Position numbers and translations under genes: made by a program | Shown here: positions 28,437-55,979 of the stretch, piece after piece | How positions within the stretch are numbered: position 1 is the stretch's first letter | Layout of the letters: each line of letters opens with the position of its first letter | Source of the DNA: a virus | Lineage: Duplodnaviria; Heunggongvirae; Uroviricota; Caudoviricetes | Reading direction: 5' to 3' (one strand) | Virus record (IMG/VR): IMGVR_UViG_3300017917_001353 | Coordinates: 38,545-102,544 of that record | Length of the DNA: 64,000 nt | Notes under the pieces: model-generated | Seen by the model: only the letters and a program-made list of their open reading frames with translations | Databases searched by the model: none | Told to the model about the DNA's origin: nothing

Positions 28437-28979
28437 ATGACACCATTCAAGATGAAAATTTTAGGGTACAATGCAGGAGCATATTCTGTTGAATATATTC
28501 CCGAGAATCCCCTATGTAAACCTATCAAATTAAACATTCAGTTAGATGCAGATACCCTAACTGACAAAGAAGAAATTGTTGAGAGATTAAAAGCATCTTC
28601 TCCTCAAGATTACTGGTACAATCAAGTAATGGCAGGCGAACTAAATCAAATCAACGAAGTTGCATCGAGTCTAGTAAATACGACTCATGCTGTTAGTTCT
28701 GTTAACACAATGCCAGTTAACCCTGTGAACAGTTTTAGTTTTCATCCAAGACGTGCTCCTTTGCGAGGACCTGATATCGAAGCAGTTGCATTACCTGAGT
28801 CTACAGCAAGAGCAATGCAAGAACAACAGCAACCGGCACCTGTTCAAGTGCAGCACGGCAGAGCAGTTCGAGGCAGCAGTAGTCCAGAACAGGTAGCAAG
28901 TCCAGAAGAACAAAATATAATTAAGTTAAAGATTCTTATTCAACAAGTTATTCAAGAAATGGCGGAAGGAACAGTATGA
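28437..28979 (+). CDS. hypothetical protein
   Basis: 180 aa. Confidence 0.3.
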   Translation: MTPFKMKILGYNAGAYSVEYIPENPLCKPIKLNIQLDADTLTDKEEIVERLKASSPQDYWYNQVMAGELNQINEVASSLVNTTHAVSSVNTMPVNPVNSFSFHPRRAPLRGPDIEAVALPESTARAMQEQQQPAPVQVQHGRAVRGSSSPEQVASPEEQNIIKLKILIQQVIQEMAEGTV

Positions 28980-29479
28980 AATTTACACCACATGCGGCAT
29001 TCGGCAAGGTTGTTATTTTGGCTCAGACAAAGGCAGGAGACACTCGTGTGGTGCCCATCGGCGATAACGGCCTAGTTAAAACAGGATGGTATTATTATAC
29101 ACATGGTGTTGCAAAAGTACACGTATTAGAAACAGGCGAACAACTCGACGATAGAACTCCCGGGTGGCTGAACGCAGAACATGCAGGCGCAGGTGCAACA
29201 ACTAGTGGAAACCTGCAACTACATTTCCCAGTCCCCACCGAATGGTTATGTATTCCGCACCAGTATAACAAAGACGGATTGCCTACACTAGAAAGTGCAA
29301 TCTTCCCAGCAGGCGAAACAACTATTATTCCTAACAACAGCAACATCTTTTTAGTTAGGGGTAAGTTGAATGTGAAAGGCAAGGTATTCACTGGACCTTG
29401 CCAAGTTAGAATTCGTTCAGGCGATGCTGAAGCAACTCCTGAAGGACCAGAGACATGTTATGGAGTAAAATTTTTATGA
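28976..29479 (+). CDS. hypothetical protein
   Basis: 167 aa. Confidence 0.3.
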   Translation: MKFTPHAAFGKVVILAQTKAGDTRVVPIGDNGLVKTGWYYYTHGVAKVHVLETGEQLDDRTPGWLNAEHAGAGATTSGNLQLHFPVPTEWLCIPHQYNKDGLPTLESAIFPAGETTIIPNNSNIFLVRGKLNVKGKVFTGPCQVRIRSGDAEATPEGPETCYGVKFL

Positions 29480-30231
29480 AAACTAAAGTATGGCAAAGAT
29501 CCATTGGGGCGTGGATGTTTTTTCCTGTAGCGTACCTAGCATATACATCTGGTGCTAGTCTGCTATGGTTGGTCCCATCTTTCTTATTATATCTAACAAT
29601 CGCACTAACAGTTACAGTTGGCTATCATAGACTGTTTACGCATAATGCATTTGTCTGTTCTAGATTCTGGCATTGGTTCTTTGGACTAACAGGATCTATT
29701 ACATTAAATTCTGCTCCAGTACATTGGAGTAGCGTTCATATCAACCATCATAAGTATAGCGACACTGATAAAGATACTTACGATTCGAACTTCAATCACT
29801 TTTTACGTTTCAAAGAACGTGAAGGAGTTCAAGCAACTAAGAACGAACTTCGAATGATGCGCGATCCTATGCACAAAATGTTAGTAAACCACAGTTTCAG
29901 CATTAGTATGGCATTCGCTGCTCTAATGTTGTTCATCAGTTACGAAGCATTCTTGTTCCTATGGGCATTACCTACAACTACATATCTAGTAACTAGCGGT
30001 CTACATACAATCTTCGCTCACGGCGGCCGCCTAAAGCCAGATGACACTCGTAGATCTTCTGCAAGAAATCTTTGGTTATTAGAATACATTGTTCCTATGG
30101 GCGGAGAATGGCTACACAAGGAACATCATGACAAACCAGGCTTAATGAACTGGGCTACTCGTCCAGGATACTTTGACCTCGGAGCACATTTAATTAGATT
30201 GATTAGCCAGAATGCAAAACAGCCTGCCTGA
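29455..30231 (+). CDS. membrane fatty-acid desaturase (Delta9 acyl-lipid/acyl-CoA desaturase family)
   Basis: Three His boxes: HRLFTH (HxxxxH), HINHHKYSDTDKD (HxxHH), EWLHKEHHD (HxxHH). Hydrophobic N-terminal helices. Confidence 0.7.
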   Translation: MLWSKIFMKTKVWQRSIGAWMFFPVAYLAYTSGASLLWLVPSFLLYLTIALTVTVGYHRLFTHNAFVCSRFWHWFFGLTGSITLNSAPVHWSSVHINHHKYSDTDKDTYDSNFNHFLRFKEREGVQATKNELRMMRDPMHKMLVNHSFSISMAFAALMLFISYEAFLFLWALPTTTYLVTSGLHTIFAHGGRLKPDDTRRSSARNLWLLEYIVPMGGEWLHKEHHDKPGLMNWATRPGYFDLGAHLIRLISQNAKQPA

Positions 30232-30409
30232 TTTAGAAGCCGAAGACGTCCGATATAATCTGCATGTAGGTGCAGAACCTATATCGGACTATAACATCAC
30301 ATTGATTTGGCCAGAATGGAAACCACCGCCAGATCGATTCCCTCAAGTTCCATTACAACCTCCAGAAATTGTAAAATCTAATCTAGCGAAATTAGGGATA
30401 TTCTTCTAA
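30212..30409 (+). CDS. hypothetical small protein
   Basis: 65 aa coupled ORF. Confidence 0.25.
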   Translation: MQNSLPDLEAEDVRYNLHVGAEPISDYNITLIWPEWKPPPDRFPQVPLQPPEIVKSNLAKLGIFF

Positions 30410-31374
30410 TGAAAAAATTCCTTCACCATGCGGGCATGACGCCCATGATGACCACCCCTACTCATATGTATAATGTGTACGATAGAACACAGTCAATGCT
30501 CTATCAGCCACAGATACATTGTATATCTCCTATAGGCAAAGTAGTAGACAAACCTAAAACAATAGAAGAACTATGCTACGAAAGCGCACAGAGGATTATT
30601 TCTAAAGCAGAGTACAATTTTATTTTTGTAACATGGAGCGGAGGTATTGACTCTACTCTTGTGCTATCCGAGTTTTTGAAATATGCACCACATGATCAAA
30701 TCGTCGTAATGATGGACAAGCATAGTATTCAAGAATATCCTAGTTATTATGAGAAGTTTATTAAGAACAAACTAAGAACTACTCATATGGACTTCTATAC
30801 TGATCGTCCGCTAGAAAAAGCAATACAAACAGGCATTGTAGTTACAGGACACTTACTAGATCCAGTGTTCGGATCTAACAACTACTCTGCTATGTCTGAA
30901 CAAAAACTAAGAGAGCCAGTAGAAAGTTTCTTAAAACCGTTAAACGGTTATTCGAGAGAACTTTACCAAAAATTAATAAATGCTTGCCCTAGACCTTTAG
31001 AAAATGTTAAAGATTTATTCTGGTGGTTAGATTATACGTTAAACTATCAGAGCGAAGAACTAATGTGGCTACTAGAAGTCAAAGATATGATTCTGGGCAA
31101 AAACCTTTTTCACTTCGGCATGGGCCCCGATTGGAATAACTATGCTGTAACAACTCCAATTGAAGGCAAGTGGGAAGGATACGATTTTAGAAAATTTAAA
31201 CAGCCTTTGAAAGATCAAATTTATAAATTTACTAAAGATGATTTTTATACAAAGGAAAAAATTAAAATGCCGTCCTGGAGACATTATAGAACAGACGAGC
31301 AGCGATACAGTAAAAAAGCAATCTGGATCGATACAGAATGGAGAAGAGGATGGCAGTGGCAAAATCAAATTTAG
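30409..31374 (+). CDS. PP-loop ATP pyrophosphatase superfamily protein (AsnB-C/PAPS-reductase/QueC-like adenylating enzyme)
   Basis: FIFVTWSGGIDSTLVLSEF carries the SGGxDS PP-loop. 321 aa. Ends with TAG. Confidence 0.55.
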   Translation: MKKFLHHAGMTPMMTTPTHMYNVYDRTQSMLYQPQIHCISPIGKVVDKPKTIEELCYESAQRIISKAEYNFIFVTWSGGIDSTLVLSEFLKYAPHDQIVVMMDKHSIQEYPSYYEKFIKNKLRTTHMDFYTDRPLEKAIQTGIVVTGHLLDPVFGSNNYSAMSEQKLREPVESFLKPLNGYSRELYQKLINACPRPLENVKDLFWWLDYTLNYQSEELMWLLEVKDMILGKNLFHFGMGPDWNNYAVTTPIEGKWEGYDFRKFKQPLKDQIYKFTKDDFYTKEKIKMPSWRHYRTDEQRYSKKAIWIDTEWRRGWQWQNQI

Positions 31375-31811
31375 CAGTAGAAAAAGATAAGTTCGGAGTT
31401 GACGTAGAAATAAAATACTGCCAACTCTTAGGCGGTACTCCGAACATGACATTCTTTCTGTCTCAATTTTTAAAATTAATTCAGAATGGACATGCACATC
31501 CCCATATGGCAGGAAACAACAGGTCAAAGGCCGTGTATGCAACTATTGATAATAGAATAGTTGGTCAAATCACATTTGATATTTTAGATGATTATGCAAA
31601 AACAACGTGGATCGTCTTGAGCTCAGTAGATGAAGAATTTAGGGGCCGAGGCATTTACACAATGTTGCATAAACATTTAGAAACCCTAATGCTCGAGTTG
31701 GGGTCTAGAAAATTGGCAAGTCATGTACACATAGATAATACAGTACGTCAAGCCAGTGCTAGAAAAGTGGGCTTGAAGCCTGTTTATTACAGAATGGAAA
31801 AAGACTTATGA
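31338..31811 (+). CDS. GNAT-family N-acyl/acetyltransferase
   Basis: [15 protein letters not shown] matches GNAT motif A (R/Q-x-x-G-x-G/A). 157 aa. Overlaps the previous gene by 37 nt. Confidence 0.55.
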
Positions 31812-32047
31812 GTGAACAAACTTTAGAACAACAGATTATTAAAATTGTCGCAGAACAACTGGGAATTCCGGAAGAGTCTGTGAAATTAGATTCGGCCTTC
31901 GTAGCCGACCTTGGTGCAGATTCGTTAGACACAGTAGAATTAGTAATGAGCTTAGAAGATCATTTCAATATTGAAATCCCTGACGAAGAAGCAGAAAAAA
32001 TTACAACTCCAAGGAAAGCAATTGAGTATATTGAACAGTTGAAATAA
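31808..32047 (+). CDS. acpP: acyl carrier protein
   Basis: [34 protein letters not shown] is near-identical to the AcpP core, with Ser in DSL as the phosphopantetheine site. Confidence 0.85.
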
Positions 32048-32060
32048 CAAAGGAGTAGAA

Positions 32061-32519
32061 ATGGCGTTAAAATTTCAATGTGAACCGGTCCTAAAAGTTA
32101 AGCCCGAAATGGAACCTATGTTAGAAGACCATTATCAGGAATTAACTTTACACAAAGACAAAATTAAACTTGCACCCGATTGGGAACTTTATGACAAAAT
32201 GGAGAAGGCAGGAACTTTCTATCTTCTCACAGCACGTGACTCTGACACTGAAGAATTGTTAGGTTATAGTGCATGGTTCGTAAAGCCGCATATTCATTAT
32301 AAAGAAACCATTGTTGCAGCCAACGATGTTCTTTTCTTAAGAAAAGACCAGCGAACCGGCATGACGGGCATCAAATTAATTAAATATTCAGAGCAAGAGA
32401 TGAAAAAGTATGCCCATAAAATCACATGGCACGTAAAAGGCGAGCCCGATTTTAGACCAATTCTTCACAGACTGGGCTACGCAGATGAAGACGTTATTGT
32501 AGGAAAAATGTTAGTATGA
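32061..32519 (+). CDS. GNAT-fold acyltransferase-like protein
   Basis: ...ANDVLFLRKDQRTGMTGIKLI... resembles the GNAT acyl-CoA/ACP binding strand-turn. 152 aa. Confidence 0.35.
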   Translation: MALKFQCEPVLKVKPEMEPMLEDHYQELTLHKDKIKLAPDWELYDKMEKAGTFYLLTARDSDTEELLGYSAWFVKPHIHYKETIVAANDVLFLRKDQRTGMTGIKLIKYSEQEMKKYAHKITWHVKGEPDFRPILHRLGYADEDVIVGKMLV

Positions 32520-33172
32520 CGACTAGACCAAGTTACGAGTTTTATAGCAAATTGCATTTTAGGCCCGAGCAACTAGAAGCAATTAAAACGCTATACAAAA
32601 AATACTTCGAACAATTTCTTCCGGAAAAGTACGACGGTACAGCAACTTCTGTACTATGGTACAGAGGTGCTAAGTGGGTCGCGGGCGAAGGCCACGATAA
32701 AAATCACAAAGTAAAAGGCGGGGTTGTTGAAGAAGGTAACGACGATCCATTGTGGAAAGAACACTTTGGGGATCTTCTCCCCTACATGGAACCGGCTGCG
32801 GTTATTACACAGTTACCGCCAGGCGAAACTATGCATCCTCACGTTGACAGATCATGGCGTCCTAAGGCAATTTACTTTCCTATTTCAGGCTGTTCTGATT
32901 TGTGTGTATCTGAATACTACGATCTACCTATTAATCAGGGTGATAAGAATAGACAGAGTCAAACTCAGTTTCCTCCTCCCATTTTTTCGTATGCAATCAA
33001 TACACATGCATATCTAACCAATACTCACGAATGGCACGGTGTAAGAAATTTAAGCGATCAAACACGCACTGCATTTGGTTGGAATTTTAGACAAGGGCTT
33101 AACCTTTCTATGGCTCAGTGCAGAGACATTTTGTTAAAGTTAGGTTACATCAGAGAAGACGACGAAAGATAA
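32516..33172 (+). CDS. cupin-type 2OG-Fe(II) oxygenase-like hydroxylase (paralog family A)
   Basis: HPHVD (HxD) ... HEWHGV (distal His). DPLWKEHFG..LLPYM...YFPI.GC...SEYYDLP is shared with the next gene. Confidence 0.45.
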   Translation: MTTRPSYEFYSKLHFRPEQLEAIKTLYKKYFEQFLPEKYDGTATSVLWYRGAKWVAGEGHDKNHKVKGGVVEEGNDDPLWKEHFGDLLPYMEPAAVITQLPPGETMHPHVDRSWRPKAIYFPISGCSDLCVSEYYDLPINQGDKNRQSQTQFPPPIFSYAINTHAYLTNTHEWHGVRNLSDQTRTAFGWNFRQGLNLSMAQCRDILLKLGYIREDDER

Positions 33173-33817
33173 TTGAGTATGAAAGAAGCCAGGGATCTTT
33201 TTACAAAGTGTTCCTTTACTGAGGCACAGCTCGATGCCATGAGAGAACTATATAGAAAATGGTTCGCTCCCCGGGTCCCTGAACTTTATAACGGAACAGC
33301 AACAGTTGCTATCTGGTATCCAAATGGTAAGTGGGAACAAACCAAGGGCAAAGATGTAAATCATTCCAATTACGGATTTGTTGACCCTGAAATAGGGAAA
33401 GACCCCCTTTGGAAAGAGCACTTCGGGCCCCTTCTACCCTATATGGCAAAAGATGCTGTTATCACTAAATTACCTCCTAATTCTGTAATGCATCCACACA
33501 TTGATAGGTCTTGGAGAGGGCAGGCAATTTACTTTCCTATTGAAGGGTGTACAACTGAATGTTATTCCGAATATTACGATCTACCTAAAGCAGACTCTCC
33601 GAACAGACAGAGTCAGGTAGAGTTTCCGCCAGCAATTTATCAATATGCCATTCATGACAATGCTTATCTAACAAATGTTCACGAGTGGCACGGTGTAAGA
33701 AATACCGCAAACGTTACAAGGATAGCATTTGGTTGGAATTTTAATCCAATAGCAAGGTGGCCCTACGTAAGATGTAGGGATAAGATGATAGAATTAGGAT
33801 ATATTAATGAGCAATAA
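33173..33817 (+). CDS. cupin-type 2OG-Fe(II) oxygenase-like hydroxylase (paralog family A, tandem duplicate)
   Basis: About 55% identical to 32516..33172 (HPHID ... HEWHGVRN). Confidence 0.45.
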   Translation: MSMKEARDLFTKCSFTEAQLDAMRELYRKWFAPRVPELYNGTATVAIWYPNGKWEQTKGKDVNHSNYGFVDPEIGKDPLWKEHFGPLLPYMAKDAVITKLPPNSVMHPHIDRSWRGQAIYFPIEGCTTECYSEYYDLPKADSPNRQSQVEFPPAIYQYAIHDNAYLTNVHEWHGVRNTANVTRIAFGWNFNPIARWPYVRCRDKMIELGYINEQ

Positions 33818-34400
33818 TTTTTGTTATTACCGTTTAAAAATTAAATTAGACAACTTCCTAAATCCAAAATGGAAGTTACCCAAACCCACTGGCCTTTATG
33901 GGATATGGAATCCAATGGCCGAAGAAGTTTTCAGTGGTGCTTGGCTTGAATACATGAAGTCTATAGATATTCCTATCTATAACGCAATGGTTTTTTATAG
34001 AGGCCCCGGAGCAAGTACGAAAGAAGTGCATGTTGACATCAGCAAGACAGATCCTTTAGAATTAACTAATTACGGATTCAATTGGTGTATCGGCGGTACT
34101 GAAAGCAGTATGGTCTGGTATGAGATCCCCGGAGACGGAACGGTCAAAGAGGAAGATGTAATTTGGACTGCTGCTAAAACTCCTTATGTTGCTTGGAAGT
34201 ACGAAGAAGTTAAAGAAATTGAAAGAGCGAATATTGGGCGAGAGATGACACTGGTTAAAACTGATCTCCCACATTCTATACAAATGGGCAAAGAGCCTAG
34301 ATGGTGTATCAGTGCAAGAAGTTCTTCCCTTAACAACCTTAAATGGGACGAAATTCTCGATCATCTTCGTGCAAAAGATTTACTGGTAGAAAGAACATGA
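33807..34400 (+). CDS. cupin-type oxygenase-like protein (paralog family B)
   Basis: NPKWKLPKPTG, VFYRGPGASTKEVHVDIS (HxD), PHSIQMGKEPRWCISARS, LLVER. Confidence 0.4.
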   Translation: MSNNFCYYRLKIKLDNFLNPKWKLPKPTGLYGIWNPMAEEVFSGAWLEYMKSIDIPIYNAMVFYRGPGASTKEVHVDISKTDPLELTNYGFNWCIGGTESSMVWYEIPGDGTVKEEDVIWTAAKTPYVAWKYEEVKEIERANIGREMTLVKTDLPHSIQMGKEPRWCISARSSSLNNLKWDEILDHLRAKDLLVERT

Positions 34401-34984
34401 CCATAGAAAAATGCTGGTATGAATTAAACATACCTTGCGAAAATGCGTTGAACCCTAACTGGAAGTTTCCTGATGTTGAAGGGAAAGACTTTGGTGTTTG
34501 GGATTATAAAGCGCATCAGATTTTTAATCCTAGGTGGGTCTATGATGTTGCACAAAAGGGCCTGCTAATCGCCGAGGCATTAGTATTCTACAGAGGTCCT
34601 AATCATAATACTGATAATGCACACTTAGATATACACAGAAGTCATCCTGTTAAAATTTCCACCTTTGGTTTAAATTTAATCATAGGCGGCCAAGACGCAC
34701 ATATGACCTGGTATAAAACTCCTAGAATTACTAGAAAACCCACACCCGGTGGCGCCGGAACTGTATATTATAATTGGCCTGTTAGTTCTCTAACAGAAAT
34801 TGATAGACATATTCTTGCAGAAAATAAAGTAACAATGGTGCGTGTAGGAATCCCACATACAATTATTATGGGAGATCAACCTCGCTGGTGTATTTCTGCT
34901 AGATGTGCAACTGTAGAAAATATGTACTGGCCGCAGATTACTGAATGGATGAGAAAACGAGATTTATTAGTTGAAAGAGATTAA
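34397..34984 (+). CDS. cupin-type oxygenase-like protein (paralog family B, tandem duplicate)
   Basis: NPNWKFPDVEG, VFYRGPNHNTDNAHLDIH, PHTIIMGDQPRWCISAR, LLVER. Start at the ATGA overlap. Confidence 0.4.
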   Translation: MTIEKCWYELNIPCENALNPNWKFPDVEGKDFGVWDYKAHQIFNPRWVYDVAQKGLLIAEALVFYRGPNHNTDNAHLDIHRSHPVKISTFGLNLIIGGQDAHMTWYKTPRITRKPTPGGAGTVYYNWPVSSLTEIDRHILAENKVTMVRVGIPHTIIMGDQPRWCISARCATVENMYWPQITEWMRKRDLLVERD

Positions 34985-34986
34985 CA

Positions 34987-35547
34987 ATGTTTGAAAAGAT
35001 TAATTTTAAGTTAAAGGATGATATTGATTTTGAAAGACTTAAAGGTTCAATCGTAACCTCTTATGGTAGAGAACCTAGGCCTAGACTAACTTATTATAGA
35101 TTAGGCGATCCTGAATATTTTAGATCTCTTTTACCTGACGAATTGCCCTGGGGAAATATCCCTCCTTTACAAGTACAAGTTGCTGAAATTGTAGATAGTG
35201 TCGGCGGACATTTATTACCTCATATCGATCATAATATTAGTGCCTGTGCAAATTATTATGTAACTACGGGTAATTCTAAAACGCACTTTTATAACCTCAA
35301 AGAAGGCGGTGGAGGATTTGTATATCCTGGACGACAGTCTGCTAACATCTTTACATTAGATCAGGTTGATAAGGTAACAGATTTTACAGCCGCAGACGGT
35401 GATATGTTTCTATTAGACGTGTCATCAATACACAGTGTCGAAACTCCCCAACCAGGAATCAGACGATTCATCACGTGGCAATGGGTAGGTGTTCCATTTG
35501 AAGAAGTGAGAAAATCTTTAAAGCAGAACCAAACTTCTACAGTTTAA
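34987..35547 (+). CDS. AspH-like/cupin 2OG-Fe(II) oxygenase-like protein
   Basis: GGHLLPHIDHN (HxD) ... DGDMFLLDVSSIHSVETP...RRFITWQW. Confidence 0.4.
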   Translation: MFEKINFKLKDDIDFERLKGSIVTSYGREPRPRLTYYRLGDPEYFRSLLPDELPWGNIPPLQVQVAEIVDSVGGHLLPHIDHNISACANYYVTTGNSKTHFYNLKEGGGGFVYPGRQSANIFTLDQVDKVTDFTAADGDMFLLDVSSIHSVETPQPGIRRFITWQWVGVPFEEVRKSLKQNQTSTV

Positions 35548-35550
35548 AAT

Positions 35551-36867
35551 ATGCCTTCTACATACTGTAAAACCGTGTGGAACGGTCTTCACATTCAGCC
35601 TGATGGTTACATCAGGCTTTGTTCTCTCGGAGCCAACTCTGTGCCCGAACTCGATATGCAACGTGCTAGAGATAGAGATGGAAATCTCATGAACATTGCA
35701 ACACACGAAGTTAAGGATATGATTAACAGCGATAAGCATCGGGAAGTTCGTAGGCTAAATGTAGAAAAGCCCGGCGAGTGGAGCCCGCACTGTGTTTGCT
35801 GTGAAAATAGAGAAAAAATTGTTCGAAGAAATGATGACATCGATACCAGCAGAAGACAAGCATTGATGTTCCATGTTAGATCTCCAGGTCTGAATGAGTT
35901 CACGCTAAAAGATAACATGGAGAAAGATGGTTCCGTAAACTGGGGGCCCAGTAGTCTAGATATTCGTTTCGGTAATCTCTGCAATCAAAAATGTATTATG
36001 TGTGGTCCGCACTTTAGTAACCTATGGTACGAAGAATGGGCCGACTTTTATAAAACAGACAAGATAGGATTCATCAATGAAAAAATTCAGATTGTTCGAG
36101 ATCCTGTAAAGAACAAGTTTATAGATCCGGAAGAATTTAAGTGGCACGAAAGTCCGCAATGGTGGGCAAAGTTTGAAGAAATGTGTCCTACTCTTTCTCA
36201 TATCTATATTACAGGCGGCGAACCTATGGTAACTCCGTCTCACGATGTAATGTTAGATAAGTTGATTGCTAACGGTTATGCTAAAAAGATTACATTAGAA
36301 TACGATACAAATCTTAGCGCCATTAACAACAAGATATTAGAACGTTGGCCTAACTTCAAGAAAGTAATTGTACGTGCAAGTATGGACGGCACTGGAGATC
36401 AGTACGAGTTAATTAGATTTGGCGGCAACTGGAACAAGTTTGTCGAGAATGTTAAGCGTCTCAAGGCAGCGACCGCAGAATTTCCGCACATTAAATTTGA
36501 AAGTGTTTCTTCTTGTGTACAGTTATCAACACTCTACGAAATTGAAAAGTCTGAAAAATTCTGTGAAGAAATGGATGTTCCTTTTCATATAAGATTCTTA
36601 GAAGGCCCTGTATTCTTTTCTCTAAATCATATTCCACGAAAATATAAGTTAGAACTAATAGAATACTATAAAACATTATCTGGAACAAAGCCTCCGTTGA
36701 TTATAAAATATCTAGAAAATAACTTAGACTATCCTATTAGAGAAGATTCGATGCAGCGGTGCATAGAGTTCATGGACTTCCTAGATACTACTCGTAATAC
36801 AAATTGGAAAAAAGTTCTTCCAGAGATGTATGCTCTATTAAAGAGAATGGTTGACAACCCAAAGTAA
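35551..36867 (+). CDS. radical SAM enzyme with N-terminal Cys-rich extension
   Basis: FGNLCNQKCIMCG (Cx3Cx2C) and YITGGEPMV (GGE SAM motif). Extra N-terminal cysteines (C..C, CVCC). Confidence 0.65.
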   Translation: MPSTYCKTVWNGLHIQPDGYIRLCSLGANSVPELDMQRARDRDGNLMNIATHEVKDMINSDKHREVRRLNVEKPGEWSPHCVCCENREKIVRRNDDIDTSRRQALMFHVRSPGLNEFTLKDNMEKDGSVNWGPSSLDIRFGNLCNQKCIMCGPHFSNLWYEEWADFYKTDKIGFINEKIQIVRDPVKNKFIDPEEFKWHESPQWWAKFEEMCPTLSHIYITGGEPMVTPSHDVMLDKLIANGYAKKITLEYDTNLSAINNKILERWPNFKKVIVRASMDGTGDQYELIRFGGNWNKFVENVKRLKAATAEFPHIKFESVSSCVQLSTLYEIEKSEKFCEEMDVPFHIRFLEGPVFFSLNHIPRKYKLELIEYYKTLSGTKPPLIIKYLENNLDYPIREDSMQRCIEFMDFLDTTRNTNWKKVLPEMYALLKRMVDNPK

Positions 36868-36885
36868 ATCAAGTACACTTAGTAC

Positions 36886-37479
36886 ATGATAAATTATCAA
36901 GACTTCCTTAGTTGGGTAGATGTGGCAAAATTTGCCACAGCCTGTAACAACATCAGCAATGCACCTGGTACTCAAATTCTAAATGAGCACAGTAACCGTA
37001 TGCTCAAAGAAAAGTTTATCTTAGGAGCATTGGCAATCTGCAACCACAAGAAAAATATCACTTGGGTTGATACGATTGACTACGATTTAATTTTTACAGC
37101 GTGGAATGATGCTACTGTGGAAGTTAAGACTGGCGACGGTCCTATGTTTACCGAAAAGAAGGGCGACCTTAAAGAGCATGTGAGTGTTAAACTAAAAAAC
37201 ATTTACGAAAGTAAGGCTAACACACGCACTACATTGGACAAAACATTTGATCATTTGATGATTATCCAAAATAGCGGAACATTTGCTATCGGATTCGTTC
37301 CGTTTGATGTCGTGAGTCAGCATCTGGTGCAGTTAACTGATGGATGGAAAGCCAAGATTCCTGCCGATAAAGTTACTATTGTATATCAGCAGGATATGCG
37401 ACAACTACCTGTAGACTGGACTGTCGATTTGAACCCTAGAAATTGGGTACTTGACAAACTTACTGAAGCAGGGCTATAA
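36886..37479 (+). CDS. hypothetical protein
   Basis: 197 aa. Confidence 0.3.
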   Translation: MINYQDFLSWVDVAKFATACNNISNAPGTQILNEHSNRMLKEKFILGALAICNHKKNITWVDTIDYDLIFTAWNDATVEVKTGDGPMFTEKKGDLKEHVSVKLKNIYESKANTRTTLDKTFDHLMIIQNSGTFAIGFVPFDVVSQHLVQLTDGWKAKIPADKVTIVYQQDMRQLPVDWTVDLNPRNWVLDKLTEAGL

Positions 37480-37503
37480 TAAATATAGCAAAGGAATAAT
37501 ATT

Positions 37504-37572
37504 ATGGCATATCGAGCAAAACCAAGAAGCGTTAAAGCCGCAGTTCGTAGAGTACTACGTAGAAATAAGTAA
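37504..37572 (+). CDS. very small basic peptide (22 aa)
   Basis: RBS AAAGGA. Encodes MAYRAKPRSVKAAVRRVLRRNK. Confidence 0.2.
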   Translation: MAYRAKPRSVKAAVRRVLRRNK

Positions 37573-37627
37573 TGGACGACGATCTTAAAAGATTCGGAGT
37601 TGGATTTGTTACTGTTGTAATAATCAT

Positions 37628-37969
37628 GCTACTAGTCTTGTAAGTTATTGCTGTAAGAAGCAAAGAGAAAAGTGTTCTGGACGCGGGTTCGACTCCCGCC
37701 ATCTCCACCGAAGCACATTGCGGCACTAGGAGCGCATTTAAACTTAACCTAGTGTGGCTACTTAGGCAGTGTGTTTCGTTGGGGATGTACTGGTTTCGAC
37801 AGGGCAAAGAGTAACAGAGTGGACAGCACGGTAGGCGATGACCGTAAATCAAGCAAAACAAAATAGACGCAAACGACAACGTTTACGCATTAGCAGCCTA
37901 AACACTGCTTAGGGTAACTATACCTCGTAACAGAAAATAGTAATAGGCTCTTCGGAGCCTATTTTTTTG
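37628..37969 (+). ncRNA. ssrA: tmRNA (ssrA), circularly permuted two-piece type
   Basis: Acceptor-piece 3' end GGACGCGGGTTCGACTCCCGCCATCTCCACC (T-arm plus acceptor strand plus CC, 37679-37709) lies upstream of the coding-piece 5' end GGGGATGTACTGGTTTCGACAGG (37781). The GGGGATG/CATCTCC acceptor helix has the G3:U wobble (Ala identity). Tag ORF GCA AAC GAC AAC GTT TAC GCA TTA GCA GCC TAA (37869-37901) encodes ANDNVYALAA. Terminator hairpin aggctcttcggagcct+T7 at 37945-37969. No T-arm follows the tag, so it is not a one-piece gene. The 5' boundary of the acceptor piece is approximate. Confidence 0.6.
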
Positions 37970-38017
37970 ATAAATAGTTAAACAAACGGTATCTGTTTTT
38001 ACAATAAGGAGAAAGCA

Positions 38018-38317
38018 ATGTTTGTCTATAACTCTGTTCAAGAAAAAACTTCAAATTCCACTCCCTGGTTTAAGGACGTTAATCCTGCCGCTTACGAATC
38101 TATTTTAGAAACAGTACGTAATGCACCTGGCTTTGTTAGCGGTAATTGGGAAGTTGACCCATCTAACCCTAACAGGTTCTTAATCACACACTCGTGGAAC
38201 GACAAGGCATCTTGGAAAAATATGTCAAATTCTTTAAAGTCTTTATCTGCAATGCAGATGGGCGAGCTTTATAGAAAGAACAACGAAATCACCACTACAG
38301 TAAATCTAAGTGAGTAA
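38018..38317 (+). CDS. hypothetical small protein
   Basis: 99 aa. RBS AAGGAG. Confidence 0.3.
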   Translation: MFVYNSVQEKTSNSTPWFKDVNPAAYESILETVRNAPGFVSGNWEVDPSNPNRFLITHSWNDKASWKNMSNSLKSLSAMQMGELYRKNNEITTTVNLSE

Positions 38318-38327
38318 ATACTGAATT

Positions 38328-38876
38328 ATGAAATTCAGTATCCCTATTAGTATTCCCGGCTGGGAAAATATCGCAGAAAAATATTCATCTTGGGTCAAGT
38401 TTGGAGAAGAAGGAATGCACTCCAAACTTGTTCCTACAGAAGATTGGGAATTTATACTTTCAATTGTAAACCCGGCCATAAAGAAAATTTCTAGGGTAGA
38501 TCACAAAATCAACGGCTGCATAAACTTCTTCGTCCCTCCAGGAAAAACTAGGGGAATACACGTTGATTGGAGTAGCCCTGATTGGCCCACTAAAGGCAAT
38601 TGGGCGCTGAACATTCCTATTGCAAATTACGAAAACAGTGCAATGGAATGGTATGCAGGAGAATACACTCGAGAAATGTATCATCGCCCTGGGGGATATA
38701 TTTCAGATAAACTGACTTGGAAAACTAAACCAGTTCTTATCGAATCCTGCGTCATCAATCAGCCAACTTTAGTATATGTAGATATACCTCACGATGTTAG
38801 AAACAACGGCAATTCAACAAGAGTACTGATGAGCCTGCGTTTAAGTCCTAATATCCTAACATACATTCCTAAATAA
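38328..38876 (+). CDS. cupin/AspH-like oxygenase-like protein
   Basis: TRGIHVDWSSPDW (HxD) ... VDIPHDVRNNGNSTRVLMSLRL. Confidence 0.4.
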   Translation: MKFSIPISIPGWENIAEKYSSWVKFGEEGMHSKLVPTEDWEFILSIVNPAIKKISRVDHKINGCINFFVPPGKTRGIHVDWSSPDWPTKGNWALNIPIANYENSAMEWYAGEYTREMYHRPGGYISDKLTWKTKPVLIESCVINQPTLVYVDIPHDVRNNGNSTRVLMSLRLSPNILTYIPK

Positions 38877-38966
38877 TTTCTCCAAAACTGTAAACTAATT
38901 TCTTAGTTCGTGCGTTATATATGTACGTAGATAAAGTTTTCTACGCTAACCAAAAAGGAACTTAAA

Positions 38967-39161
38967 ATGAAATTAGTTGCAACCTTGATCGCCGGCTTAT
39001 TTGCCGTTACCGCTTTCGCCGCAGAACCTGCTAAGAAAGAAGCCCCTAAGGCCGAAGCCAAGCCCGCCGCAGCCGCTCCTGCACCCGCAGCCAGCGCACC
39101 TGCTGCTAAGCCTGCTGAAAAGAAAGCAGAGCCTGCCAAAAGCGAACCTGCTAAGAAGTAA
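38967..39161 (+). CDS. secreted Ala/Pro/Lys-rich low-complexity protein
   Basis: Signal peptide MKLVATLIAGLFAVTAFA, then AEPAKKEAPKAEAKPAAAAPAPAA... repeats. Confidence 0.4.
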   Translation: MKLVATLIAGLFAVTAFAAEPAKKEAPKAEAKPAAAAPAPAASAPAAKPAEKKAEPAKSEPAKK

Positions 39162-39402
39162 ACCGACTAGAATTGTCGTTCTTGAGCTCGAAGACAGCGA
39201 ACTCGAGATAGAATTAGAAGATTCTGTTCATAGAGGATATAGCCGCCCTAGAGTTCAAGACGACAATGAAGACGATCCAGATTATGTACCAGAACACATA
39301 CGCTGGAAGTTATTCTTAGCAAGGCAACTTGCATTATTAAAATACCGTGAAGTACACGGACAGAAAAGGGCCTAATAGCCCTTTTCTTGTATAAGTACTA
39401 TT

Positions 39403-40104
39403 ATGTTCGAATTAATTTATACGCTAATAGCGACACACATCACTATAATATGTGTTACAGTTTTTCTACACAGAGGACAGGCACACAAAGGAATTATATT
39501 CCACCCACTACTAAGCCACTTTATGAGATTTTGGCTTTGGCTTACAACAGGAATGGTTACTAAACAATGGGTAGCCATACATCGCAAACATCATAGATTC
39601 AGCGACGAACCCGGAGATCCGCATAGTCCGCATGTATTTGGATTTTGGAAAGTTTTATTCAAGGGTGCTGTACTTTACCACCAGGCTAGTAAAGACAAAG
39701 AGATGATAAATGCCTACGGAGTAGGAACCCCCGACGATTGGATAGAGAAACATATCTATACTCCTCACTCTAGATTAGGCATAGGCCTGTTACTACTTAT
39801 TAATATTCTATTATTCGGAGGATGGGGAGTATTGATATGGGGTATACAAATGATATGGATCCCGTTCTGGGCCGCAGGCGTTATTAACGGAGTAGGACAC
39901 TGGACCGGATATCGAAACGGCGAAACAAAGGATCACAGCCGTAATATAAGTCCTTGGGGGATCGTTATCGGCGGCGAAGAATTACATAACAATCATCACC
40001 TAGATCCTGCAAACCCCCGCCTTAGTAAACGATGGTTCGAATTTGATATAGGTTGGGCCTATATCAACGTTTTTAAATTTTTAAAATTAGCAAGTTTAAA
40101 ATAA
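39403..40104 (+). CDS. Delta9 fatty-acid desaturase (stearoyl-CoA/acyl-lipid desaturase family)
   Basis: HRGQAH (box 1), HRKHHRFSDEPGDPHSP (box 2), ELHNNHHLDP (box 3, like GWHNNHH). TM helices. Confidence 0.7.
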   Translation: MFELIYTLIATHITIICVTVFLHRGQAHKGIIFHPLLSHFMRFWLWLTTGMVTKQWVAIHRKHHRFSDEPGDPHSPHVFGFWKVLFKGAVLYHQASKDKEMINAYGVGTPDDWIEKHIYTPHSRLGIGLLLLINILLFGGWGVLIWGIQMIWIPFWAAGVINGVGHWTGYRNGETKDHSRNISPWGIVIGGEELHNNHHLDPANPRLSKRWFEFDIGWAYINVFKFLKLASLK

Positions 40105-40105
40105 C

Positions 40106-40819
40106 ATGAGTCATATTATTCGATTTAACCGTAATAATTTTCTCGACTATCTTACTGACAACTGGAAACCCATTAGTGACGAATTTTCTTCTTGGTTCCT
40201 TGAGCATGAAAAAACTCACGGTCCTAAGATCAAGGCTAATGTAGCAACTGCCCAGACACAGAGTTTACCGTTGTATACGGGAATGTTTAAATCAGTCGTT
40301 ATAAAAATTGAAGATACATTATTGCTAGAATCTGAAGCACGATCCCTCCACTGGGAAAATTTTGGAAAGACTGGAGCCGTTAAGACTCTGTATAGAGAAC
40401 AATGGTTAGAGCAGATGCCAACTCTACATCAGTGGGTAGTACAACATTATGATATAATAGGATCTGTACAATTTAATACATCAATGCCCGGAAGCCTGCT
40501 GCGCCATCATTTCGGAAACGATCCAAAGTACCTTAGACTGCATCTAACGTTAAAAGAAGCGCCCGGCTGTATGTTTAATATCGAAAACGAAATCTATGAA
40601 TGGAAGGACGGCGACCTTATAGGATTTGACGATGCAATAGTTTATCATGGTACTAAACACACGGGTACTGAAGAAAGAGTAATCCTTGTAATAGATGTAC
40701 TAAAATCTGCTGTTAAAGAACATGCAGTAGATTGGTCGATACGGGAAGGGCTAACTAAAAGAGACAGGTCTCCTGTAGCAATATATAATTGGTATCCGCA
40801 GAAACAAAGACTAACATGA
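40106..40819 (+). CDS. aspartyl/asparaginyl beta-hydroxylase (AspH/LpxO/OlsC)-family 2OG-Fe(II) oxygenase
   Basis: PGSLLRHHFGNDPKYLRLHLTLKEAPGCMFNIENEIYEWKDGDLIGFDDAIVYHGTKHTGTEERVILVIDV matches the Asp_Arg_Hydrox signature. Confidence 0.55.
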   Translation: MSHIIRFNRNNFLDYLTDNWKPISDEFSSWFLEHEKTHGPKIKANVATAQTQSLPLYTGMFKSVVIKIEDTLLLESEARSLHWENFGKTGAVKTLYREQWLEQMPTLHQWVVQHYDIIGSVQFNTSMPGSLLRHHFGNDPKYLRLHLTLKEAPGCMFNIENEIYEWKDGDLIGFDDAIVYHGTKHTGTEERVILVIDVLKSAVKEHAVDWSIREGLTKRDRSPVAIYNWYPQKQRLT

Positions 40820-41532
40820 AGAAAGAAAGCCAATATATCTATTTTAATCGAGGTAATCCTACGTTAGATTACCTAACTAATAACTGGGAAAAAATTAGAG
40901 ATGAATTTTTAGCGTGGTATCCTAATCATATGGGTCCCGGAGGTCTACAAGACCCCGAAGGCATAGGTAAAAAAGCAAACCATTACACGATAAATCAACC
41001 TGGAGCAAATTTAGTATATCACGGAAATTTTAAGTGTATGCCCACGTTCATTCGAGATACTGTACTTGACCCGCAAGAAGCAGATGATCTCTTTTGGCCT
41101 GACTTTCAAAAAGGCGGCCCTACGTATATACTCAGGAGAGAACGAATCAAACAGATGCCCGTGATGGGACAATGGATTATGGAGCATATAGATATTTTGG
41201 GATCAGTACAGTACAACATCAGTATGCCCGGAAGCCAATTAAATCATCATTGGGGATTAGACTACAACTATCTCAGACTACATTTAGTACTAGATTCTGC
41301 TCGGGGATGTTTATTTGATATTGAGGGCGAAAAGCACGAATGGGTTAACGGAGAACTTTTCGGGTTTGATGATAGTATGGTTTTGCATGGTACTAAACAC
41401 ACCGGAACTAAACCTAGATCGATAGTTTTGATCGATATCCTAAAAACTGCTGTTCGTCCGTATGCTAAATCATGGCCAATTAAACCTTGGGTAGATCGTA
41501 AGGATAGACCAAAAATCGAAGTCAAATGGTAA
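40789..41532 (+). CDS. AspH/LpxO/OlsC-family hydroxylase (tandem paralog)
   Basis: PGSQLNHHWGLDYNYLRLHLVLDSARGCLFDIEGEKHEWVNGELFGFDDSMVLHGTKHTGTKPRSIVLIDI. Confidence 0.55.
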   Translation: MVSAETKTNMKKESQYIYFNRGNPTLDYLTNNWEKIRDEFLAWYPNHMGPGGLQDPEGIGKKANHYTINQPGANLVYHGNFKCMPTFIRDTVLDPQEADDLFWPDFQKGGPTYILRRERIKQMPVMGQWIMEHIDILGSVQYNISMPGSQLNHHWGLDYNYLRLHLVLDSARGCLFDIEGEKHEWVNGELFGFDDSMVLHGTKHTGTKPRSIVLIDILKTAVRPYAKSWPIKPWVDRKDRPKIEVKW

Positions 41533-44283: not shown

Positions 44284-44677
44284 AATAACTCTTATAACAC
44301 CGCCGGATATCTTTGAAAACGCAAACCCTAGCATCTTGTTCTGTCATCTTAGTGATGAAGAGCAAGATGCCGTAAGTAAGTGGTTATCAAAGGCCGATAT
44401 TTCAAACAACATCAATCTCTATGTATATACTGGCGAACCAGCACCGGTTTGGTTTTTGTATGCACTCAACCGATGCGAGTATAAGTATATTAACATTAAC
44501 AGTGTAAACTTACTCACACAGGCTCTTAGTGGTTATGTTCTTAGTAGAAATAATGTTTACTACAGAACAGACGATACAAACTTAGCCGCAATATACAGTC
44601 ATATAAATTCTAATCGAGTAAACACTGTTGAAGAGTTTTTAGAGAGTATTTTAGGTGCCAAAACAAGTGAATCATAA
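44273..44677 (+). CDS. hypothetical protein (upstream partner of clpX)
   Basis: 134 aa. Overlaps the clpX start. Confidence 0.3.
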   Translation: MKSKITLITPPDIFENANPSILFCHLSDEEQDAVSKWLSKADISNNINLYVYTGEPAPVWFLYALNRCEYKYININSVNLLTQALSGYVLSRNNVYYRTDDTNLAAIYSHINSNRVNTVEEFLESILGAKTSES

Positions 44678-45884
44678 TTGCGATTTTTGCGGCAAAAGCA
44701 AAGAAGACGTAGAAAAACTAATAGTCGGCGAACATGCCGCAATTTGTAATGATTGTATAGATTTATGTGTTAGCATTTTAGATGACGAGAAAGTAAAAAA
44801 TTTACCCTCTGATAAAAAGACACTGAATCCTAGTCTAATCAAAGACTACCTTGACGAGTATATTACAGGCCAGGAAGATGCAAAGATAAGCCTTAGTGTT
44901 GCAGTTAGCCAGCACTTTAAGCGTATCAACAATCCCCACAAAGATATTAGTCTAGAAAAGACCAACGTACTATTGTTAGGTCCTACTGGCTGCGGCAAAA
45001 CTGCTCTGGCTAGAAAAATTGCAGAGTATCTAGATCTGCCGTTTGCTATCTGCGATGCTACTAGCATCACTGAAGCAGGCTATGTCGGCGACGATGTTGA
45101 AAGCATTCTGCTACGATTAATTAATGAAGCAGATGGGGACATGGAAAAGGCCAGCCGGGGCATTGTCTACATCGACGAAATTGACAAGATTGCCCGCAAA
45201 GGCGAAAACGTCAGTTTAACTAGAGATGTCAGTGGCGAAGGTGTTCAACAGGCCTTACTCAAAATGGTAGAAGGTAGCATTATGCGTGTTCCATATACCG
45301 GAAAAAGAAAGCACCCCGGATCGGACATGCAGGAAATCGACACCAGCAAGATTCTATTCATTTGCGGTGGTGCGTTTGTAGGACTAGACAAGATTGTACA
45401 GCGTCGAGTAGAAAACAGAGGAATCGGCTTCAATTCTAAACTACCTGATCCTACAAAGAACTCTGAATTTTATCAACAGGTAACACCTAAAGATATCATT
45501 CAGTTTGGATTTATTCCAGAGTTCATTGGACGATTTGGTATTATTACCAGTGTCGAAGAACTTACAGAAGAACAACTAGTAAAGATCCTAGTTGAAAACA
45601 AAAACAGTCTAGTTAGGCAATACAAGTATATGTTTGAACTAGACGGCATTGATCTACATTTTGAAGATAGTGCGTTAAGAGAAGTTGCCCGCAGAGCAAA
45701 AGAATTGAAAACAAATGCTCGTGGTTTAAAAAATATTCTCGAAAAGACACTGCTACCTTATCAATTTGATGCAGTTAATTTATTAGAGCGCGGTTTAACG
45801 AAAATTATTATAAGTAAAGATACCGTAGCCGGAAATCCGGCTGTATTGATATTTGATAAAAAAGTAAAAAATGAGCAAAAATAA
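44655..45884 (+). CDS. clpX: ATP-dependent Clp protease ATP-binding subunit ClpX
   Basis: N-terminal C4 zinc domain (CDFCGK...ICNDCIDLC), Walker A GPTGCGKT, GYVG pore loop, IGF ClpP-docking loop (NRGIGFNS), and sensor/arginine motifs. 409 aa. Confidence 0.9.
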   Translation: MPKQVNHNCDFCGKSKEDVEKLIVGEHAAICNDCIDLCVSILDDEKVKNLPSDKKTLNPSLIKDYLDEYITGQEDAKISLSVAVSQHFKRINNPHKDISLEKTNVLLLGPTGCGKTALARKIAEYLDLPFAICDATSITEAGYVGDDVESILLRLINEADGDMEKASRGIVYIDEIDKIARKGENVSLTRDVSGEGVQQALLKMVEGSIMRVPYTGKRKHPGSDMQEIDTSKILFICGGAFVGLDKIVQRRVENRGIGFNSKLPDPTKNSEFYQQVTPKDIIQFGFIPEFIGRFGIITSVEELTEEQLVKILVENKNSLVRQYKYMFELDGIDLHFEDSALREVARRAKELKTNARGLKNILEKTLLPYQFDAVNLLERGLTKIIISKDTVAGNPAVLIFDKKVKNEQK

Positions 45885-46110
45885 AGAAAGGGGTAGGGGC
45901 ATTAAAGTTATCGTCGGCGAGAATATGCCAATTAACGTAGCCCTGCGTAAGTTCAAACAAAAAGTTGACGATTCGGGCAAACTTGAAGATGTCAAAAAAC
46001 GTATGTTCTACGAAAAGCCAACAACTGAGCGTAAGAGAAAAAAGGGTGCGGCCCGTGCTCGTTGGCTAAAACGAGTAGAAGAACAACAACTACCTAAAAA
46101 ACTATTTTAA
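45871..46110 (+). CDS. rpsU: 30S ribosomal protein bS21
   Basis: IKVIVGENMPINVALRKFKQKV...KKRMFYEKPTTERKRKKGAARARWLKR matches bS21. Confidence 0.8.
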   Translation: MSKNKERGRGIKVIVGENMPINVALRKFKQKVDDSGKLEDVKKRMFYEKPTTERKRKKGAARARWLKRVEEQQLPKKLF

Positions 46111-49456: not shown

Positions 49457-49526
49457 ACTTTAGAGAACAGTTTGACTATTTAAAGAAGTGGCACTGCCCT
49501 TCTTGCAACACACACAAGGAAACAAA

Positions 49527-55978: not shown

Positions 55979-55979
55979 A

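Follow-up and report, generated by a model that had tools for sequence, protein, structure and literature searches.

The 64,000-nucleotide stretch analysed here (hereafter, the window) spans positions 38,545 to 102,544 of IMG/VR record IMGVR_UViG_3300017917_001353, and carries a block of accessory genes of an uncultivated freshwater T4-like myovirus. Central to the block is a five-gene core, i.e., genes for a 167-aa protein (g167), a membrane desaturase (des1), a small acidic protein (sm), a stand-alone PP-loop enzyme (PPL) and a divergent GNAT (GNAT2). The order g167-des1-(sm-PPL)-GNAT2 was found in about 25 distinct T4-like contigs, followed by c1-, c3-, c5-, c6- and AspH-type genes in varying combination, which encode 2-oxoglutarate (2OG)/Fe(II) oxygenase-like proteins. 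The genes for an acyl carrier protein (ACP), a second GNAT (GNAT1), a radical S-adenosylmethionine (SAM) enzyme, a second desaturase (des2) and a transfer-messenger RNA (tmRNA) are lineage-specific insertions, and the block is thus composite. We tentatively interpret it as two co-located functional layers rather than as one pathway, a reading that we hold to be quite possible, at somewhat less than an even chance.

To profile synteny, the genomic contexts of c1, PPL, g167 and GNAT2 homologues from public assemblies and IMG/VR were scored with all block proteins (tblastn, E ≤1e-4, coverage ≥50%, crude caller of open reading frames, ORFs); the IMG/VR scans used exact peptide patterns, which miss divergent relatives. 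Identities of the core proteins fall to 40–50% among the contigs, and the flanks of the core differ, with the genes f13–f11 upstream in some, GP38-like tail-fibre genes in others, and variable genes downstream. In 26 of 26 IMG/VR loci, g167 is followed directly by des1. Four loci (two contigs) keep g167-des1-GNAT2 without sm-PPL, and sm was absent wherever PPL was missing; therefore, sm and PPL act as a unit. A preliminary description of this DNA had started the block at 29455, one gene downstream of where the conserved unit begins (28976), and all ORFs that it listed were found at its coordinates, give or take a few codons where other starts are available. Its view that these are not isolated auxiliary metabolic genes stands as far as the order of the core is concerned, which is kept in divergent contigs despite their differing flanks, and does not extend to a demonstrated single pathway.

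All of the block genes are intact. For every gene shared with the close relative L167 (ENA ERZ4209337 NODE_827, ~87% nucleotide identity), the ratio of nonsynonymous to synonymous substitution rates (dN/dS) was 0.006–0.12 (0.013 for g167, 0.012 for des1 and 0.01 for ACP), indicating strong purifying selection and ruling out pseudogenisation. The g167 family is widespread, with 101 representatives at 50% clustering in a single-sequence search of a 1.84-billion-protein library. A profile search with g167 gave no match in the PDB, and hhalign gave no link between g167 and other families. The possibility that g167 is a cupin akin to the Cupin_2 proteins associated with PPL was rejected (hhalign probability <2% using alignments of 68 and 58 sequences), weak Cupin_3/Cupin_2 matches being confined to 5 of the 68 g167 members.

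Insertions have occurred between PPL and GNAT2. The site is empty in most relatives, which accordingly lack GNAT1, contains GNAT1 without ACP in five loci (four contigs), and elsewhere holds TctC with a 388-aa protein, or an APS-kinase-like protein. ACP was detected only in the closest relatives of the window, i.e., L165/L166 (PPL-ACP-GNAT2; ACP 75% identical) and L167–L169 (the arrangement of the window, PPL-GNAT1-ACP-GNAT2; 99% identical). Together with PPL-GNAT2 and PPL-GNAT1-GNAT2, all four arrangements are thus seen, and therefore the ACP bracketed by two GNATs that the preliminary description had highlighted exists in the window and in L167–L169 and is not a conserved unit, since ACP and GNAT1 are separable. 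The radical SAM gene (located after c5 in part of the relatives), c6, des2 and the asph pair were likewise detected in some relatives only; co-conservation accordingly holds for the core and fails for ACP, GNAT1, the radical SAM enzyme and des2. The radical SAM protein alone, used as an IMG/VR scan query, gave 0 pattern matches, and the most similar IMG/VR contig overall was L029. L167 is without c1, c6 and asph1 and has an extra, third FA_desaturase gene (L167:15038–15799; 253 aa, 48.3 bits) between the gene for a 197-aa protein and the tmRNA, differences that indicate very fast paralogue turnover.

The block genes are packed closely, with overlapping stops and starts, and a two-piece tmRNA of betaproteobacterial type lies in their midst. 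It matched Rfam beta_tmRNA (RF01850) at 150.9 bits and tmRNA_permuted at 144.5 bits, and ARAGORN reported a permuted tmRNA with the tag peptide ANDNVYALAA. The tmRNA is preceded by a promoter matching sigma-70 at 12 of 12 positions (TTGACA-18-TATAAT) and ends in a terminator (a stem, then a T-run), and is kept in part in L167. Having its own promoter and terminator, it divides the block into at least two transcription units, which rules out a single operon; the single co-directional block described previously is therefore correct in its ORFs and incomplete in having passed over this unit. The T4 late promoter TATAAATA had 0 copies in the block and a count in the window no higher than chance, so that the timing of expression could not be inferred.

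This architecture bears on whether the genes are coupled at all. The region could be a hyperplastic T4-like accessory region in which independent auxiliary genes act alone and gene order reflects common descent, as its composite structure, its many insertions, the speed at which close relatives gain and lose paralogues, the unrelated tmRNA unit in mid-block and the presence of more oxygenases scattered in the window would suggest. GNAT2 also occurs without the rest of the core in about 26 other viral contigs. A parallel exists in the cyanophages P-HM1 and P-HM2, which encode an ACP, an ACP synthase (ACPS), two asparaginyl beta-hydroxylases and TauD, the ACP, ACPS and hydroxylases without a known link, and most cyanomyoviruses (14 of 16) carry multiple 2OG-Fe(II) oxygenases (Sullivan et al. 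2010, PMC3037559). However, independence sits poorly with the invariance of the g167-des1 pair, the persistence of the order from g167 to GNAT2 while both flanks change, the behaviour of sm and PPL as a unit, the tight packing with stop/start overlaps, and the recurrence of a PPL-cupin pairing in unrelated bacteria and phages (see below), and we regard it as unlikely.

Table 1 Features of the block and related genes elsewhere in the window.
Feature	Position in window	Strand	Description	Detail
AcpS-like	16729–17028	+	Short (99 aa) AcpS-like phosphopantetheinyl transferase	Possible primer of the phage ACP
Third AspH-family gene	21680–22378	+	AspH-family oxygenase between nrdA and nrdB, outside the block	PF05118 61.3 bits
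g167	28976–29479	+	167-aa protein, constant upstream partner of des1	Absent from the preliminary description
des1	29455–30231	+	Divergent membrane Delta9-type fatty-acid desaturase-like protein, core	Gene caller start 29476
sm	30212–30409	+	Acidic 55–69-aa protein just upstream of PPL (65 aa here), core	dN/dS ~0.08
PPL	30409–31374	+	Stand-alone PP-loop ATP-pyrophosphatase, predicted asparagine-synthetase-like fold, 321 aa, core	No Pfam family
GNAT1	31338–31811	+	Classical GNAT N-acetyltransferase, accessory insertion	PF00583 Acetyltransf_1 43.1 bits
ACP	31808–32047	+	AcpP-type acyl carrier protein, host-derived, lineage-specific
GNAT2	32061–32519	+	Divergent GNAT, best-conserved core gene	phrog_1249 acetyltransferase
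c1, c2	32516–33817 (c1 32516–33172, c2 33173–33817)	+	Tandem paralogues, orphan 2OG/Fe(II) oxygenase family
c3, c4	33807–34984 (c3 33807–34400, c4 34397–34984)	+	Second orphan oxygenase family	c4 ORF open from 34343
c5	34987–35547	+	c1/c2-related 2OG/Fe(II) oxygenase-like protein	Weak 2OG-FeII_Oxy_3 match; H79, D81, H149, R159 conserved
Radical SAM enzyme	35551–36867	+	Accessory; N-terminal twitch/SPASM-like cluster domain	NF033640, PF04055, PF13186
197-aa protein	36886–37479	+	No family match	98% identical in L167, dN/dS 0.006
tmRNA unit	37451–37965	+	Independent transcription unit: sigma-70 promoter 37451–37480, two-piece betaproteobacterial-type tmRNA 37598–37965, terminator 37942–37963
ABM-domain protein	38018–38317	+	Small antibiotic-biosynthesis-monooxygenase-like protein	PF03992 27.9 bits
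c6	38328–38876	+	c3/c4-related 2OG/Fe(II) oxygenase-like protein	BLASTP E 1.4e-4 to c3; H, D, H, R conserved
64-aa protein	38967–39161	+	Ala/Pro/Lys-rich	Signal-like hydrophobic residues 1–19; 97% identical in L167
des2	39403–40104	+	DesA-family Delta9 acyl-lipid desaturase, host-like, C-terminally shortened, accessory
asph1, asph2	40106–41532 (asph1 40106–40819, asph2 40789–41532)	+	Tandem soluble Asp/Asn-beta-hydroxylase-family oxygenases
ClpX-like ATPase	44655–45884		Auxiliary gene
P4H-type oxygenase	46107–46718	-	P4H-type 2OG-Fe(II) oxygenase outside the block	PF13661 34 bits, PF13640 33.7 bits
PstS-like protein	52345–53367		Auxiliary gene
NMNAT-Nudix and NAMPT	54893–58207		Auxiliary genes (NAD salvage)

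Within the block, only the desaturases and ACP are lipid-linked. That the phage encodes two desaturases with all three His boxes was borne out by the Pfam FA_desaturase scores (PF00487; 41.2 bits for des1 and 47.4 bits for des2, gathering score 29.7), by the boxes themselves (HRLFTH, HINHH and HKEHH in des1; HRGQAH, HRKHH and HNNHH in des2) and by three hydrophobic segments in each protein. The nine His residues are ≥90% conserved among 20 members of the des1 family. Against the DesA model NF049918 (cut-off 400), des2 scored 394.5 bits over model positions 11–239 of 385 and is a near-equivalog of proteobacterial DesA without the C-terminal third of the model, and des1 scored 27.1 bits.

The ACP is of the AcpP type, as proposed earlier (NF002149 equivalog, 114.9 bits vs cut-off 106; TIGR00517, 107 vs 70), with the DSL motif that bears the serine for phosphopantetheine attachment at residues 38–40. 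Its origin is host-like, with 65–73% identity to AcpP of Burkholderiaceae, Rhodocyclaceae and Sulfuricella. The relatives at 70–99% identity are unannotated metagenome proteins, and the two that were looked up (75% and 99%) are in close phage relatives. The ACP is a recent addition in one sub-lineage. The acpS gene reported elsewhere in the window is present as an AcpS-like gene with both its N-terminal and C-terminal motifs (GIDI and SHEGD, visible in the translation); it is short, and it scored below the family cut-offs (PF01648, 21.6 vs 25; NF000832, 43.7 vs 107). Relatives of the AcpS-like protein at 43–54% identity are found in eight other viral contigs. The lists of IMG/VR contigs with AcpS and with ACP did not overlap, which is uninformative for exact-peptide scans restricted to flanks.

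In the first of the two layers, des1 and des2 would, judging from their family membership, act as membrane di-iron, O2-dependent Delta9-type desaturases that, in infected cells, add cis double bonds to the acyl chains of phospholipids already present in the host, as experiments have shown for the desaturases of cyanophages. In the one sub-lineage, acyl-carrier capacity would be kept up by the AcpP copy of host origin, for which the AcpS-like protein is a possible primer.

The second layer would be built around PPL, whose earlier assignment as a PP-loop enzyme was confirmed by an SGGIDST motif that is invariant across 36 relatives. The best Foldseek matches of its AlphaFold2 model (pLDDT 93.6) were AsnB, carbapenam synthetase (CarA), beta-lactam synthetase and TsnB9 (E ~1e-4, ~290 columns), with low TM-scores of 0.37–0.43 to these AsnB-type proteins, and LarE and GMP synthase matched at the nucleotide-binding core only. 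PPL is without an N-terminal glutaminase-like domain and is, by its modelled structure, an enzyme with an AsnB-like synthetase fold.

Relatives of PPL were detected in 529 IMG/VR stretches, and a scan of 185,579 bacterial and archaeal species, each represented by one genome, gave 176 matching stretches, of which 125 contain a member of the family. Cupin_2 proteins that carry a metal-binding motif are encoded next to PPL in 36 of 79 bacterial loci (L208–L286), forming small conserved cassettes in Bacteroidota, Alphaproteobacteria, CPR (candidate phyla radiation) bacteria and others. Distant phage homologues of PPL (L030–L089, IMG/VR) have the same cupin as well as TctC/DctP carboxylate-binding neighbours, often near tail-fibre-like genes. 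No lipid genes were found in the contexts examined around bacterial or distant phage PPL homologues. Other phages have a 556–576-aa form of PPL amid tail-fibre-like and glycine-rich genes. In one bacterial locus (L008, ENA ERZ28653421 scaffold_3944), two of three PPL paralogues are preceded by a helical protein of ~220–260 aa, and their neighbours include YcaO, nitroreductase, CapK_C and TctC; this may be a peptide or natural-product cluster. The sm protein, located next to PPL in the phages, has an N-terminal LPxLxxED motif and a C-terminal KxGI motif (12 distinct sequences). We identified no recognisable core, recognition element (RRE) or protease, i.e., none of these hallmarks of ribosomally synthesized and post-translationally modified peptides.

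The proteins c1–c6, silent in Pfam for the most part, are genuine 2OG/Fe(II) oxygenase-like proteins. The H-x-D...H...R signature is ≥90% conserved in every c1–c6 family (H75, D77, H156 and R165 in 20 sequences of the c3/c4 family), and the model of c1 (pLDDT 96) has the double-stranded beta-helix fold. hhalign linked c1/c2 to c5 (93–95% probability) and c3/c4 to c6 (97.7%), with a link between these two groups that depended on the alignment used, and AspH was unlinked by sequence. All six are soluble. Structurally, c1 resembles amino-acid, nucleoside, protein and RNA hydroxylases equally and at the superfamily level only, ribosomal-protein, EF-Tu and proline hydroxylases being among these likenesses, and no lipid hydroxylase was among them; a profile search with c1 gave no match in the PDB. 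For c1–c6 as a group, the matches are limited to generic hydroxylases of small molecules, proteins and nucleic acids. The c1 oxygenases form 65 metagenomic clusters.

The asph pair belongs to a family of its own, Asp_Arg_Hydrox (PF05118; asph1 65.2 bits, asph2 60.3 bits, gathering score 22.6), in which H140 and H186 are conserved. The best PDB match of the pair was human AspH, with the catalytic region aligned including both His residues. The three tandem pairs noted earlier are real (54% identity for c1/c2, 37% for c3/c4 and 47% for asph1/asph2). Eight oxygenase-type genes were indeed found in the block, where the preliminary description had counted at least eight AspH/LpxO/OlsC-like paralogs, but only the asph pair is in that Pfam family. 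The proposed likeness to LpxO and OlsC did not survive comparison with the models of these enzymes (asph1/asph2: 36.9/31.7 bits vs cut-off 500 for LpxO, and 31.7/20.0 vs 450 for OlsC), and neither protein has a hydrophobic, i.e., membrane, segment. With two genes outside the block, the window encodes at least ten such oxygenases. The third AspH-family gene occupies the same position in the relatives L167, L016 and L029, and the P4H-type gene adjoins a gene for an Rv2179c-like 3'-5' exoribonuclease (46781–47311).

The matches of GNAT1 are to classical acetyl-CoA N-acetyltransferases. In the Pfam scan (E up to 0.01), GNAT1 returned Acetyltransf_1, 7 and 10 only, and GNAT2 returned nothing; neither the OlsB/N-acyl-amino-acid synthase family (PF13444) nor the LuxI family (PF00765), both suggested earlier, was returned for either protein. 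GNAT1 also had weak matches to RimI and AAC(6'). GNAT2, 47–93% identical across relatives, had weak and generic GNAT matches only in a profile search of the PDB. Its relatives in podophages lie in structural modules, just after a head-closure or 'stabilization' protein.

From these folds and gene contexts, PPL may adenylate a carboxylate and couple a nucleophile to it, with amide formation; GNAT2 may N-acylate or acetylate an amine; and the changeable set of c1–c6 and AspH-type oxygenases may hydroxylate the same class of soluble substrate. Candidate substrates are amino acids, metabolites resembling di- or tricarboxylates, and the side chains of peptides or proteins. The unstable number of oxygenases and the copies scattered in the window are more in keeping with a toolbox than with a multistep pathway of fixed composition.

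Several points weigh against a separation into two layers. We infer every substrate, any coupling of the layers and the roles of g167 and sm, and the conserved gene order in T4-like phages can derive partly from shared ancestry rather than function. des1 always lies beside the soluble module, which could reflect a real lipid coupling. ACP lies exactly between PPL and GNAT2 in two sub-lineages, an arrangement that loading of the ACP by PPL, or use of acyl-ACP by a GNAT, would predict, and AspH-family enzymes do include lipid hydroxylases. The linkage of des1 and the position of ACP keep in play the view of the preliminary description, i.e., one O2-dependent pathway that builds or remodels acylated envelope molecules, in which acyl-ACP feeds GNAT N-acyltransferases, while des1/des2 desaturate, and the LpxO/OlsC-like and other oxygenases hydroxylate, the resulting product or lipid A. 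The retention of ACP at this position, the inseparability of des1 from the module, the co-occurrence of two desaturases, AcpP and an AcpS-like gene, the third desaturase in L167, and the inclusion of LpxO and OlsC, both weak matches here, in the AspH Pfam family would all be in line with a single lipid pathway. However, most core-bearing relatives are without ACP and GNAT1, the LpxO and OlsC scores (20–37 bits vs cut-offs of 450–500) come from AspH proteins with no membrane anchor, and c1 matches no lipid hydroxylase. GNAT1 is of the Acetyltransf_1 type, with no OlsB/N-acyl-amino-acid synthase or LuxI family returned, relatives of GNAT2 reside in podophage virion modules, bacterial PPL contexts are without lipid genes, and the oxygenase number is unstable. 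What remains of the acylated-envelope pathway is the lipid link of the desaturases and ACP, a link that the asph pair, the other oxygenases, the GNATs and PPL do not share, and we consider a single pathway of this kind improbable.

The same enzymes could instead modify a peptide or protein, with sm or a host or virion protein as the substrate and the desaturases as unrelated neighbours, a possibility to which we assign a low probability. In such a scheme, itself unlikely in our estimation, the AsnB-like enzyme would amidate or cyclise a side-chain carboxylate (as do lasso-peptide cyclases), the AspH-type and other 2OG oxygenases would hydroxylate residues, GNAT2 would acetylate an amine, and the radical SAM enzyme would add further modifications. 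The radical SAM assignment itself was verified (NF033640, 278.4 bits vs cut-off 170; CNQKCIMC motif at residue 144), and its SPASM/twitch domain is typical of peptide maturases. Further points in favour are that sm is a conserved coding gene gained and lost together with PPL, that the fold of PPL is AsnB-like and a bacterial locus combines YcaO and nitroreductase genes with three paralogues of PPL, that among solved structures the asph pair is closest to the protein hydroxylase AspH, and that c1 is as close to ribosomal-protein, EF-Tu and proline hydroxylases as to others. The relatives of GNAT2 in virion modules and the position of the core after GP38-like tail-fibre genes in several relatives would also fit. 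However, we identified neither a leader/core architecture nor a recognition element or protease, the N-terminal domain of lasso cyclases is missing from PPL, and sm has no Cys-, Ser- or Thr-rich core. Four loci (two contigs) hold g167-des1-GNAT2 without sm-PPL, the linkage of des1 is left unexplained, and the fold similarities are all at the superfamily level. A further reading, which we likewise consider improbable, is that the core and its oxygenase train (with ACP in some lineages) are a true undescribed phage pathway of biosynthesis or modification. Its product would be either sm as a ribosomal peptide carrying amidation or cyclisation, hydroxylation and acetylation, or a hydroxylated amino-lipid that depends on ACP and is made with des1 at the membrane, and it would serve to alter the host envelope or the virion in the course of infection.

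The window beyond the block agrees with a T4-like source. It encodes rIIA (38–43% identity to T4-like phages), class I ribonucleotide reductase, tail-fibre-like proteins, ClpX, a PstS-like phosphate-binding protein, NAMPT and an NMNAT-Nudix protein, on the basis of which we assign it to a T4-like myovirus. Searches for near-identical DNA in isolate phages gave a sole match of 39 bp, by chance, and none shares DNA with the block. Similarly, tblastn of c1, PPL, des1 and des2 against 50,697 phage records gave nothing or a single weak match to an MnmA region. The exact window sequence recurs in metagenome assemblies, i.e., a Logan contig of SRR5831666 and a contig of JGI/Logan origin. Given the beta-type two-piece tmRNA and an ACP that is 65–73% identical to betaproteobacterial AcpP, the host is probably a betaproteobacterium.

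Other genes in the window were also inspected. At 1396–5859, the gene for a 1055-aa protein, which combines an Mtd_N domain with a collagen-like repeat and a beta-propeller-like region, precedes that for a Laminin_G_3 protein; both products resemble receptor-binding tail fibres, and the collagen-like repeats are conceivable prolyl/lysyl hydroxylase substrates. A redox/stress run (48197–50069 and 53602–54336) encodes an AhpC/TSA peroxiredoxin, a DOPA-4,5-dioxygenase-family protein, a short GDSL hydrolase and a CMD (AhpD-like) protein, accompanied by a minus-strand TerC membrane protein; the relative L002 has a comparable AhpC-GDSL-CMD run. A tRNA with anticodon CUA (50687–50759; labelled tRNA-Pyl by ARAGORN, Rfam tRNA model 34.3 bits) may be a phage-borne amber suppressor.

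Each part of the block has a phage precedent, and the core itself was not found described; our literature search on the conserved core and on the PPL and c1 families gave no description, its coverage being incomplete and the result an absence of evidence only. Outside phages, the ornithine-lipid and lipid A enzymes (OlsB, OlsC, OlsE and LpxO) comprise an acyl-ACP GNAT-like N-acyltransferase, AspH-family hydroxylases and a membrane di-iron enzyme, classes that are formally alike to those of the block. The block differs from them in missing the OlsC/LpxO models by >400 bits, in having no OlsB-type Pfam match and no OlsA-like O-acyltransferase, and in the solubility of its AspH proteins. AsnB-like synthetases work with 2OG oxygenases in other systems, i.e., beta-lactam synthetase with clavaminate synthase and carbapenam synthetase CarA with CarC. 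The fold of PPL matches these synthetases, and PPL likewise lies beside 2OG/Fe(II) oxygenases and a GNAT, but PPL is only 321 aa long, has no glutaminase-like domain, gives the low TM-scores noted above and is accompanied by no other genes of these pathways, so that the likeness is one of fold and gene logic only.

Among phages, the Delta9 desaturases of cyanophages (vFAD) are experimentally proven (Roitman et al. 2017, PMC5776448). Like des1 and des2, they are membrane desaturases with three His boxes carried as auxiliary genes by T4-like aquatic phages, with a proposed tuning of host membrane unsaturation. They differ in being of the DesC type, whereas des2 is of the proteobacterial DesA type and des1 travels with g167 and the soluble module; moreover, des1 and des2 have no tblastn similarity to any isolate phage record and are known here from sequence. 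P-HM1 and P-HM2 share the parts list of the window (ACP and its synthase, AspH-family and multiple 2OG oxygenases), with no assigned function in either case. In P-HM2, however, a 164-aa ACP lies near the baseplate gene gp5 and the AspH-like 'TlmH' is unclustered, ~130 kb away, whereas the genes of the window are grouped in one block, the conserved core of which contains the AsnB-like enzyme and GNAT2. The OM43 myophage Melnitz has a two-piece tmRNA reported as alphaproteobacterial-like (Buchholz et al. 2022, PMC9004378); the window shares with it a permuted tmRNA in an aquatic myophage, but of the betaproteobacterial type (RF01850), and the Rfam scan revealed no glutamine riboswitch.

The usual practice is to interpret the auxiliary genes of T4-like phages from aquatic habitats singly. 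Here, five core genes in fixed order, followed by a variable series of oxygenase genes, recur in about 25 uncultivated freshwater phages. Two of the families in this assemblage have no Pfam domain and no comparably similar relative in an isolated phage, and modelling now gives the PPL and c1 families a fold and a partner logic, in which PPL is paired with a cupin/oxygenase and with sm. If the core turns out to be no pathway, the block still shows clearly that phages other than cyanophages carry desaturases and an ACP of host origin; if it does form one, phage metabolism would move beyond single borrowed enzymes to a tailoring chemistry of its own, dependent on O2, Fe and 2OG.

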